The notes beneath the pieces are model-generated. The model was given only the letters and a program-made list of their open reading frames with translations, was not told the DNA's origin and did no database searches. Position numbers and translations under genes: made by a program. A stretch of 64,000 nucleotides of DNA from Octopus vulgaris (lineage: Eukaryota), in the NCBI GenBank assembly GCA_951406725.2, contig OX597818.1, forward strand, positions 141,174,001 to 141,238,000, given 5' to 3'. Of the stretch, positions 17,679 to 63,838 are shown piece after piece. Position 1 is the first letter of the stretch. Every line of letters starts with the position of its first letter.

Positions 17679-17872
17679 ATGACCAGAACTCGGGAAGCTT
17701 AGTTTAGTGTTCTATGGTCTATGACCAGAACTCGGGAAACTTGGTTGAGTGTTCTATGGTCTATGGCCAGAACTCGAGAAACTTGCTTGACTGTTCTATG
17801 GTCTATGACCAGAAATCGGGAAACTTGGTTGAGTGTTCTATGGTCTATGACCAGAACTTGGGAAACTTGGTT
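17679..17872. repeat. 42-bp minisatellite, about 4.6 copies
   Basis: Unit ATGACCAGAACTCGGGAAACTTGGTTGAGTGTTCTATGGTCT starts at 17679, 17721, 17763, 17805 and 17847. Confidence 0.9.
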
Positions 17873-18564
17873 GTGTCCTCATCTTATAAAATGTGGCCCC
17901 AGTAGACCCAAATTAAATCGGGTTATATTAACCAAAAGGTGAAAAGGGGTATAAATGGGGCTGGAAGGGGATTAAAATTTAAAGGAGCGGGTGTTTAGCA
18001 ATTCTCTGTTACATCAAGCTAAAAAATTTGCTCCAGCCTTTTAATCGTCAATGTGTTGCCGTCCATGATGAAGAAGTTTTGAATGCTTGCCATCGTGAGT
18101 CTACTGTCGTGAGAAAGAATCAAGTCAAAACTTGGTTTTTAGGGATTTTCTTTTACATCAAGTTCAAACTTTTACGCCAGCCGTTGAACTGTCAATACGT
18201 TGCTGTCCGTCGTTAAGAAATGCCAGCCATGGTGACTCTACTATCCTCAAATTCTATCCCTTCAAACTTTGGTTTCCAATATTTTATTATTTTTATTCAG
18301 CTCGCAAGTTCGTCTGTCCCTTTTAAATGTTAGTGTTTTGCTGTCTGTCTTGAAGCAGACCTTTCCTTTGTAACTGCCTGATATTTATGATTGATCTTTC
18401 TAAATATTTTATTTCTCAACTTACTCAAGATCTTTTGTTGTTTATAAATGGGAGAGAGATACATAAAGATAGAGAGTAAGAGAAAGCGAGGGAGAGTCCG
18501 AGAGAAAGGAAGAGTAAGAGAATGGGAAAGTGAGAGAGAAAGGAGAAAGAAACAAAGAGGGAGA

Positions 18565-50920: not shown

Positions 50921-50948
50921 TTTTTTATATATAATGCATACATGCATA

Positions 50949-50987
<39 letters not shown>

Positions 50988-51284
50988 GAAATATTAAAAT
51001 TACTAAGGTTATATGGATACAGTTTGTGTATCAAATAGCTAACTTAAGGCGATGGCCTCATGGAGCTAATAAGCGGTCAGCTTTATTCTTATTTTTATAA
51101 GAATGCCATATTAGTATGGCGATAACTAATATTTTCCGGGAACGCTGCCGTTGTTCTCTTTTAGAGAGACTTAGTAATTTTAATATTTCTATTATTGAAA
51201 ACAAGTGGATGTATTCCACCGAAGCTAGGTAAATAAAACCTTTGAACAGAGATTGTCGGAAGCGACACCTACTGGTTTGGCTAC

Positions 51285-51326
51285 GCTGCATTGAAAAGGG
51301 GCAATACCCCGAAACGCGTCTGTAGC
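51285..51326 (+). ncRNA. Type I hammerhead ribozyme, U3:A8 core variant, copy 1
   Basis: GCTGCA-TTGAAAA-GGGG-CAATA-CCCC-GAAA-CGCG-TC-TGTAGC. Predicted cleavage after C51320 (GUC). Confidence 0.8.
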
Positions 51327-51647
51327 TGCCGGCCAAGTAGTGTGGAGCGACTGACCTCCCTTGTTCAAAGGTTATATGGATACAGTTTGTGTATCAAATA
51401 GCTAACTTAAGGCGATGGCCTCATGGAGCTAATAAGCGGTCAGCTTTATTCTTATTTTTATAAGAATGCCATATTAGTATGGCGATAACTAATATTTTCC
51501 GGGAACGCTGCCGTTGTTCTCTTTTAGAGAGACTTAGTAATTTTAATATTTCTATCATTGAAAACAAGTGGATGTATTCCACCGAAGCTAGGTAAATAAA
51601 ACCTTTGAACAGAGATTGTCGGAAGCGACACCTACTGGTTTGGCTAC

Positions 51648-51689
51648 GCTGCATTGAAAAGGGGCAATACCCCGAAACGCGTCTGTAGC
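51648..51689 (+). ncRNA. Type I hammerhead ribozyme, U3:A8 core variant, copy 2
   Basis: Identical to copy 1, offset +363. Confidence 0.8.
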
Positions 51690-52010
51690 TGCCGGCCAAG
51701 TAGTGTGGAGCGACTGACCTCCCTTGTTCAAAGGTTATATGGATACAGTTTGTGTATCCAATAGCTAACTTAAGGCGATGGCCTCATGGAGCTAATAAGC
51801 GGTCAGCTTTATTCTTATTTTTATAAGAATGCCATATTAGTATGGCGATAACTAATATTTTCCGGGAACGCTGCCGTTGTTCTCTTTTAGAGAGACTTAG
51901 TAATTTTAATATTTCTATTATTGAAAACAAGTGGATGTATTCCACCGAAGCTAGGTAAATAAAACCTTTGAACAGAGATTGTCGGAAGCGACACCTACTG
52001 GTTTGGCTAC

Positions 52011-52052
52011 GCTGCATTGAAAAGGGGCAATACCCCGAAACGCGTCTGTAGC
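52011..52052 (+). ncRNA. Type I hammerhead ribozyme, U3:A8 core variant, copy 3
   Basis: Identical to copy 1, offset +726. Confidence 0.8.
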
Positions 52053-52373
52053 TGCCGGCCAAGTAGTGTGGAGCGACTGACCTCCCTTGTTCAAAGGTTA
52101 TATGGATACAGTTTGTGTATCAAATAGCTAACTTAAGGCGATGGCCTCATGGAGCTAATAAGCGGTCAGCTTTATTCTTATTTTTATAAGAATGCCATAT
52201 TAGTATGGCGATAACTAATATTTTCCGGGAACGCTGCCGTTGTTCTCTTTTAGAGAGACTTAGTAATTTTAATATTTCTATTATTGAAAACAAGTGGATG
52301 TATTCCACCGAAGCTAGGTAAATAAAACCTTTGAACAGAGATTGTCGGAAGCGACACCTACTGGTTTGGCTAC

Positions 52374-52415
52374 GCTGCATTGAAAAGGGGCAATACCCCG
52401 AAACGCGTCTGTAGC
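52374..52415 (+). ncRNA. Type I hammerhead ribozyme, U3:A8 core variant, copy 4
   Basis: Identical to copy 1, offset +1089. Confidence 0.8.
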
Positions 52416-52577
52416 TGCCGGCCAAGTAGTGTGGAGCGACTGACCTCCCTTGTTCAAAGGTTATATGGATACAGTTTGTGTATCAAATAGCTAACTTAAG
52501 GCGATGGCCTCATGGAGCTAATAAGCGGTCAGCTTTATTCTTATTTTTATAAGAATGCCATATTAGTATGGCGATAA

Positions 52578-52621
<44 letters not shown>

Positions 52622-52682
52622 TATTTATATATGCATGTATATATGTACATATATACATATATATATATATATATATACATAC

Positions 52683-52716
<34 letters not shown>

Positions 52717-52752
52717 GCATATACATACATATATATGTATATATATATATAT

Positions 52753-52863
<111 letters not shown>

Positions 52864-62991: not shown

Positions 62992-63027
<36 letters not shown>

Positions 63028-63166: not shown

Positions 63167-63207
63167 TATTCAACCGGTTTTCGTCATTGTATGACTTGTC
63201 AAGAATA
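63167..63207 (-). ncRNA. Hammerhead motif with U3:A8 core (one extra A) downstream of a PLE endonuclease
   Basis: TATTC-TTGACAA-GTCA-TACAA-TGAC-GAAA-A-CCGG-TT-GAATA. Confidence 0.55.
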
Positions 63208-63838
63208 TTTATGTTTTAAGAAGTTTTTTTAAAATTAGAAAGGGGAAAAAAAGAAAATTGCATTGTTTTTTGTAAAAGAATAATGATAAAAATGTACAAA
63301 AATTAAAAAATAAGTTCTCCGATACATTGTGAGTTCGTTGTGTATCTTGCGTTTTATGGTTGTTTACGAAAAAATTACCTTGAGGTGTTAAGATCCAAAG
63401 GGATTAAGAGCATGTGTTGTGTTGTGTTGTTAAATTCAGCATGTTTGCAGGACAGGAAGTAGTAGTAATTGTGGTCCTGGTTCTTCAGTTCCTGTGTTGT
63501 GAGTAAGGGGAGACAACTCTTTTGAGTTCTTCAATAAAACCCAAATTATAAAACTATCATTTTAGCTTCATTTGCATTATCTTTTTTATATAATTGCTTG
63601 TTAACTTAACTTTCAGATTTTAACACTTTATTTATATTATTTTCTAATAATATAAATCTGCATAGACAATTGCATTTCAAATTGTCATATCATTTATAAT
63701 AAAAATGATAGTAATAACAACAATAGTAAAAATGATATTTAAAGAATATAAGTTTTAGCTTGAAGTGATGAATGCATGGTATCTTTATATATTTGTGTTA
63801 GTCCATCCATGAAAAGTGAGGTAGAGAAAGGAAGTTTG

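Follow-up and report, generated by a model that had tools for sequence, protein, structure and literature searches.

Introduction

Non-LTR retrozymes of metazoans are described as tandem arrays whose units measure 150-450 bp, have a GC content below 50%, contain one type I hammerhead apiece and are expressed as unit-length RNA in linear and circular form (PMC7229834). They include mussel repeats of 350-390 bp and axolotl elements with dimer-dependent hammerheads; RNA circles and cleavage were shown for such elements, and a host ligase is reported to close the monomer (Cervera and de la Pena 2020, PMC7229834). Animal retrozymes have been viewed as dependants of Penelope-like elements, or PLEs (bioRxiv 10.64898/2026.07.22.740005). 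For PLEs, reports describe insertions in which one of the inverted ends bears a tail (PMC8557442, PMC3846280), as well as an enzyme that uses two internal start sites and cuts and extends both strands (PMC11167929). As for the ribozyme core, a U3:A8 pair is an accepted natural variant, presented as a covariation of several hammerheads and, by citation, as active in vitro (PMC3088659). About 1,300 U3-A8 matches were recovered from Schistosoma Penelope elements once the search descriptor was changed, and hammerheads with a short helix III are described as cleaving via dimers (PMC4209133).

We describe a hammerhead with the core UUGAAAA, located at positions 51285-51326 of a 64-kb stretch of the Octopus vulgaris genome (the window). 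Like metazoan retrozymes (PMC7229834), the family to which it belongs has short tandem non-coding units below 50% GC with one type I hammerhead each, a strongly self-paired predicted circle, a short palindromic helix III and Penelope-like elements alongside. It departs from those described in that paper by U3:A8 in a canonical-size hammerhead with conserved loop 1/loop 2 letters, by the presence of all four 3:8 states in sister subfamilies and by insertion ends that map to two fixed sites; the circles and the cleavage documented for those elements are predicted from the sequence here. With the U3-A8 hammerheads of Schistosoma mansoni Cercyon (PMC4209133) and other natural U3-A8 cores (PMC3088659) it shares the same compensatory pair, which a C3-G8 descriptor misses. 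However, the Cercyon motifs are described as mostly single, heterogeneous and minimal, whereas the window family is young, homogeneous and tandem, with a 6-bp helix I that is extended, a 4-bp helix II and a U3:A8 majority. The (AT)n targets, 5' truncation, back-to-back arms and one-end extension are those of EN+ Penelope-like elements (PMC8557442, PMC3846280, PMC11167929), from which the family differs in being non-coding, in having a tail of ~60 nt against 30-40, and in its lack of clear homology to the local Penelope repeat. The U3:A8 variant is therefore not new, and the element is a new family with a known core variant. In our view the 363-bp unit probably belongs to a young non-LTR retrozyme family and carries the motif as its type I hammerhead, which likely cuts tandem transcripts to unit-length RNAs; these would circularise and be pasted into (AT)n by a Penelope-like reverse transcriptase (RT)-endonuclease.

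Results

A type I hammerhead with a U3:A8 core

The first-pass annotation had read the core as UUGAAAA, with positions 3 and 8 both changed, and this reading was confirmed (Table 1). The motif has type I topology, with three helices round the core and an opening at helix I. The core letters U4, G5, A6 and A9, G12, A13 and A14, A15.1-U16.1 and H17 are all present, and U51291 and A51296 make a Watson-Crick 3:8 pair. In 22 copies from the different subfamilies the core letters were invariant (22/22), barring 3:8, H17 and one 16.2 change. When the 64-kb window was searched with a descriptor requiring a 6-bp helix I, the sole matches were the four copies of the array, whose hammerheads are identical, and 50 shuffles of the window remainder gave a mean of 0 matches. 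The Rfam hammerhead models yielded 0 matches at the gathering score and none at E up to 10; this is a limit of the models, an Rfam match not being a defining hammerhead feature in the cited papers.

Folded alone, the 46-nt motif is modestly better than its shuffles (z -2.1), and the 363-nt unit folded as a circle reaches z -5.9. Helix III is 2 bp long and palindromic, which points to cleavage in a dimer, so that the lone 46-nt piece is likely unrepresentative. Helix I had been proposed to extend past an internal loop. The extension was recovered, but in another register than the proposed one (UUGGC 51277-81 with GCCAA 51332-36). In the circular unit the proposed pairs have a probability of 0.00, whereas those of GGC 51279-81 with GCC 51328-30 reach 0.97-0.98; in the 22 relatives, 56.4% of cells are paired in the proposed register and 87.5% in the nearer one. 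Four loop letters (U51282, U51327, A51304 and A51306) are invariant in 22/22 rows, a pattern that would fit a loop 1-loop 2 tertiary contact. A conserved reverse Hoogsteen pair is described in the hammerhead loop-loop contact (PMC6155905), and the window letters may correspond to it.

Table 1. Features of the hammerhead and of the insertion that carries it (window positions)
Feature	Position	Strand	Remarks
Left (AT)n target tract	50946-50984	.	flanks insertion
Short inverted second arm	50982-51007	-	26 nt; 3' end = start site 2, ~235 nt downstream of predicted cut (locus L005)
Forward arm of retrozyme insertion	51005-52584	+	4.35 head-to-tail copies of 363-bp non-coding unit, 41% GC; 3' end = start site 1, 175 nt downstream of predicted cut (locus L005)
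Right (AT)n-rich target tract	52581-52763	.	flanks insertion
Hairpin directly upstream of start site 1	52557-52572 (51105-51120 in unit 1)	+	present in every subfamily printed
Hairpin upstream of start site 2	51156-51168	+	similar hairpin in tail of autonomous Penelope-like family, by-eye resemblance only
Full type I hammerhead, copy 1	51278-51331	+	includes helix I extension, 51278-81 with 51328-31
Helix I	GCUGCA 51285-51290 with UGUAGC 51321-51326	+	6 bp; 97% of cells paired, 4/6 pairs changed on both sides (22 relatives)
Helix I internal loop UAC/U	UAC 51282-84 opposite single U 51327	+	from folding and 22 relatives
Catalytic core positions 3-9, UUGAAAA	51291-51297	+	U3 = 51291, A8 = 51296
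Helix II, GGGG-CAAUA-CCCC	51298-51310	+	4 bp; loop 2 = CAAUA; A51304 and A51306 invariant in 22/22 relatives
GAAA (G12-A13-A14)	51311-51314	+	followed by palindromic mini helix III and C17 (51311-51320)
Helix III	51314-51319	+	palindrome ACGCGU only; 2 bp in monomer
C17	51320	+	predicted cut between 51320 and 51321
Hammerhead copy 2	51648-51689	+	core at 51654
Hammerhead copy 3	52011-52052	+	core at 52017
Hammerhead copy 4	52374-52415	+	core at 52380

The array and its family

The units of the window array differ at 2 single positions overall, and the 363-bp unit is devoid of a long coding frame (the longest ATG frames are 39 aa on the ribozyme strand and 78 aa on the other). The hairpin next to start site 1 is a candidate recognition mark for the reverse transcriptase.

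Exact copies of the core region number 801 in the 2.8-Gb Octopus vulgaris assembly, against 0 for the reversed pattern. The first 100 of the exact copies listed all read UUGAAAA, and the core invariance of the window family is a biased measure in that 40 of the 60 loci mapped below were chosen by core pattern. Divergence over these 60 loci is 2.3% between loci, 0.7% between the two arms of one locus and 0.5% within an arm; since the arms of one locus are closer to each other than loci are, both arms derive from one template variant. The sequence traits of a non-LTR retrozyme are found here: 363-bp tandem units with a type I hammerhead in each, 41% GC, no coding capacity and a dispersed distribution. 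The window family is thus a young, dispersed, multi-copy non-LTR retrozyme family. Its sister subfamilies are homologous to it over the whole unit and have the arm structure in common. Within the window family (L167-L184), all 7 point variants found at C17 were C-to-A and none was C-to-T or C-to-G. The change gives GUA, a permitted cleavage triplet, and these variants are possibly a single sub-lineage.

Elsewhere in the genome, the units of one C3:G8 array (L035-L041, G000:C1:20.00 Mb) alternate between sequence variants, one unit being 353 bp long. In older dispersed families (L034, L042-L044, L050-L053, L058) the core is canonical with one base added behind position 9, helix II is long, and inverted arms are frequent. 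At twelve loci with other hammerhead-like matches no RT frame was recognisable by eye. In viral contigs there were 3 matches to the U3:A8 pattern, none with a convincing helix I or III, and 58 to the C3:G8 pattern, a count made before any structural screen.

Insertions end at two fixed sites and pair unlike ends

We mapped 60 loci, 40 in genome order and 20 best-scoring ones. Arms end 3' at two fixed points, ~175 and ~235 nt past the predicted cut, on (AT)n, and their 5' ends are scattered. With its fixed internal 3' ends, one tailed inverted end, 5' truncation and microsatellite targets, this footprint is of the Penelope type. Among the 40 genome-order loci, 23 had two arms with mixed ends (one of them, L154, scored from its flank) and 0 had two arms with ends alike; 5 had one end off both sites, 2 were cut or irregular and 10 were one-armed. 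The 20 best-scoring loci comprised 13 mixed, 1 alike and 6 single. Unlike ends are therefore paired in 36/37 scorable two-armed loci (binomial p 3e-10). The anole enzyme in vitro is reported to show no strand difference in start site (PMC11167929); in the present family, by contrast, the two arms of one locus nearly always carry unlike ends. No publication describing this strict pairing was found in the main texts of a largely open-access literature.

Arms of up to 5.5 units occur (L127). A start precisely at the predicted cut was seen for 11 arms (of 18 pattern matches), and a single control site gave 5 (of 12; p = 0.105), a difference that we do not use as a sign of cleavage in vivo. By inspection, arm 5' ends (L127-L166) look enriched 39-62 nt past the cut; the long central stem lies there and may cause the reverse transcriptase to stall.

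Covariation of the helices

The covariation set consisted of 22 copies chosen to span the subfamilies and all four 3:8 states. In these, 94.9% of helix cells were paired, against 26-51% in slid controls, and 67 cells had changed on both sides, against 23.4 in shuffled alignments (0/500 shuffles as high). Changes on both sides occurred in 10/18 pairs, and compensatory changes were present in every helix. Two other measures of covariation in this set, by pair count and by type count, did not exceed all shuffles (133/500 and 460/500, respectively). Helix III stays self-complementary through seven sequences (ACGCGU, ACCGGU, ACUAGU, ACUCGAGU, ACUGCAGU, ACUAUAGU and ACCUGGGU), which again points to dimer cleavage. 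The units of the subfamilies are only about 70% alike, yet the other core letters are invariant.

Four states of the 3:8 pair

A relaxed pattern search found 2,679 related motifs in the genome, of which 1,944 (by subtraction) have U3:A8, 586 C3:G8, 107 U3-G8 and 42 C3-A8. Position 3 and position 8 thus form a Watson-Crick pair in 2,530/2,679 motifs (94.4%), compared with 62.8% under independence, these being copies and not independent events. The earlier proposal that 3:8 had undergone a Watson-Crick swap and not decay is supported by this excess, together with the core invariance in 22/22 copies and the covarying helices. The description of U3:A8 as rare does not hold: the variant was already published, and it is the commonest state in this genome (1,944/2,679). 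As to covariation across genomic copies, which the first-pass annotation had put forward as a check, the helices do covary, but U3-G8 and C3-A8 subfamilies exist and have spread to many places, which in part bears out the independent variation of positions 3 and 8 that the annotation had named as evidence against its proposal. U3-G8 marks two subfamilies. Of the C3-A8 matches, 26/42 have one loop in common; they occupy 19 places, and at some of these they are present in both arms or as tandem copies.

A tree was built from 172 distinct copies, reduced to 65 at 97% clustering and then to 48, once 4 chimeric rows had been dropped along with 13 that nearly duplicated the window family; it rests on 245 columns, core columns omitted, and is unrooted (no outgroup). 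It replaces an earlier 65-row tree that had four chimeric long branches. The 48-row tree requires at least 12 state changes at 3:8. A single clade of C3:G8 was rejected (p-AU 1.6e-9), as was a single clade of U3:A8. One C3:G8 group is sister to the C3-A8 subfamily (97/87 and 99/90, joined at 96/99), and these sister groups are nested in U3:A8 rows, themselves nested in U3-G8 rows. Many other mismatched rows are single copies that may represent plain post-insertion mutations, and template switching between subfamilies could add false state changes to the tree. From the sequences, the 3:8 pair has likely flipped several times, through mismatched stages, and Watson-Crick pairing at 3:8 appears as favoured and not strict.

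Tandem neighbours, hand-counted among the matches listed, were found for 25/100 U:A, 34/100 C:G, 4/100 U-G and 3/42 C-A motifs (Fisher p 2e-9). We do not take the lower tandem rate of the mismatched subfamilies as support for the preference, because older U:A subfamilies are equally low (2/21) and age confounds the comparison. No publication with all four 3:8 states in one retrozyme superfamily was found in the main texts of the largely open-access literature; cores of this kind may already be contained in the supplementary lists of retrozymes that accompany PMC7229834 and PMC4209133.

An autonomous Penelope-like family in the same genome

The genome holds many intact Penelope-like copies with a 781-aa open frame containing RT and GIY-YIG domains (GIY-YIG scores above its cut-off, RVT_1 just below). 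Judging by a Cys-rich linker, they may be of the Neptune or Nematis type as classified in PMC8557442. These copies also have two 3' ends, ~35 nt apart, on (AT)n. Their terminal repeat carries a hammerhead-like motif with 858 matches; the first 100 listed comprise 96 U3:A8, 3 U3-G8, 1 C3-A8 and 0 C3:G8. When 35 retrozyme units were compared with the 1 kb behind 30 GIY-YIG matches (30/6,136 candidates), homology to a Penelope terminal repeat was limited to one weak 34-nt match (E 0.008). Another Penelope family may be the parent of the retrozyme. The retrozyme works like Penelope and is not to be called derived from the Penelope-like family examined, its helper being assigned by class only. Two further traits of that family were observed: a second, upstream open frame of 479 aa (L218, L220, L222), for which no convincing Pfam match was obtained, and a terminal repeat composed of short internal tandem repeats.

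Discussion

In the mechanism that we favour, transcription through the array would give a multimer RNA in which neighbouring hammerheads pair through helix III and cut after C17, presumably mainly as dimers and aided by a loop 1-loop 2 contact. A host ligase would close the 363-nt monomer into a circle. The Penelope enzyme would then break an (AT)n tract on both strands. On one RNA, copying would be primed from one strand at +175 and from its partner at +235, and each primed strand would run round the template, in rolling fashion, until it stops, leaving two back-to-back arms. Selection would favour a Watson-Crick 3:8 of either kind, mismatched states still being mobile for a time. Against this mechanism stand the spread of mismatched subfamilies, the insertion of ribozyme-dead mutants in vitro (PMC11167929) and the 8/9 Xenopus retrozyme dimers that reportedly did not cleave (bioRxiv 10.64898/2026.07.22.740005). 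Tandem arms could alternatively come from read-through transcripts of older arrays.

This last point leads to an alternative that we hold to be unlikely: that the fold is kept with cleavage dispensable, the Penelope enzyme copying uncleaved read-through array transcripts from two internal sites, so that no circle would be needed and 3:8 would be weakly constrained. The mismatched subfamilies have moved, arm starts at the cut are not significantly in excess, and published work goes the same way, in that ribozyme-dead mutants are inserted by a Penelope element in vitro with undiminished efficiency and anole RNA-seq had no ends at the cut (PMC11167929). Weakly constrained cores would nevertheless hardly keep every other core letter invariant across subfamilies ~70% alike, nor Watson-Crick pairing in 2,530/2,679 motifs, regained after mismatched stages, and without a circle 5' truncation should shorten arrays at each generation, yet arms reach 5.5 units.

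A satellite that expanded in place out of a decayed Penelope terminal repeat, through unequal crossover and with U3:A8 as an inherited relic, is very improbable. Such a route has been proposed for vertebrate retrozymes (bioRxiv 10.64898/2026.07.22.740005) and the local Penelope repeat has U3:A8 too, but the footprint contradicts local growth: the loci are dispersed and number hundreds, their 3' ends fall on (AT)n at the same two points, and their 5' ends vary. Compensatory changes are found in every helix, and the Penelope repeats examined have no clear sequence likeness to the retrozyme; both observations also speak against it. Also very improbable is the reading that makes an L1/Tx1-type LINE, present inside some relatives, the real carrier of the element. 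This LINE was joined to a U3-G8 hammerhead in 4/6 long regions examined; however, it occupies a single position within the retrozyme unit and is accompanied by a short duplication of retrozyme sequence, so that the retrozyme appears as the target of the LINE. The ends of the retrozyme are internal and Penelope-like in pattern, with no poly(A), and LINE-type duplications and tails were absent from the retrozyme insertions at the 60 mapped loci.

Returning to the cleaving and circularising retrozyme, a more speculative extension can be offered, which we regard as possible but doubtful. The core pair would have crossed a fitness valley repeatedly (U3:A8 to U3-G8 to U3:A8, and U3:A8 to C3-A8 to C3:G8), with mismatched stages kept mobile by cleavage rescued in trans, through a helix III dimer with a paired ribozyme or through the Penelope protein. 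U3:A8, common to the retrozymes and the autonomous Penelope, would be a tuned, assistance-dependent setting under which circles persist long enough for a single dimeric enzyme to copy them, from two fixed sites, onto the two strands of one cut.

The four 3:8 states occur in almost identical RNA frames and, with their copy numbers and a tree, constitute a natural allele series that permits a test of the need for cleavage in retrozymes and of the route of compensatory core changes. The first-pass annotation had warned that CUGANGA searches would miss this family, and this was borne out: searches limited to that motif, and Rfam likewise, would miss about three quarters of the superfamily (1,944 + 149 of 2,679). 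For the Penelope insertion mechanism, a sharp prediction follows from the strict pairing of unlike ends.

Other repeats in the family and in the window

In four regions (L121, at G000:C8:32857000-32866500, L122, L123 and L124) a LINE, which we take to be of the Tx1 type, sits at the same position of the U3-G8 unit, ~20 nt before the core. Its domains are zf-CCHC and APE endonuclease, RT and zf-RVT. There are two LINE lineages, 81-82% alike, with stacked copies in L122 and L123, and the retrozyme looks like the specific target of this LINE. On the minus strand of L123, near 1837, the junction between a U3-G8 core and a 5'-truncated second LINE falls exactly behind the GUC triplet of that core; this single junction may reflect microhomology or be the trace of a cleaved RNA end.

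The window itself contains a second, unrelated hammerhead-like motif at 63172-63210 on the minus strand, with the core UUGACAA (U3:A8), a 5-bp helix I and a palindromic helix III, in an AT-rich piece that ends on (AT)n near 63025. It is likely a remnant of another Penelope-type repeat. Finally, a 42-bp tandem repeat of 4.6 copies, 90% alike, occupies window positions 17679-17873.
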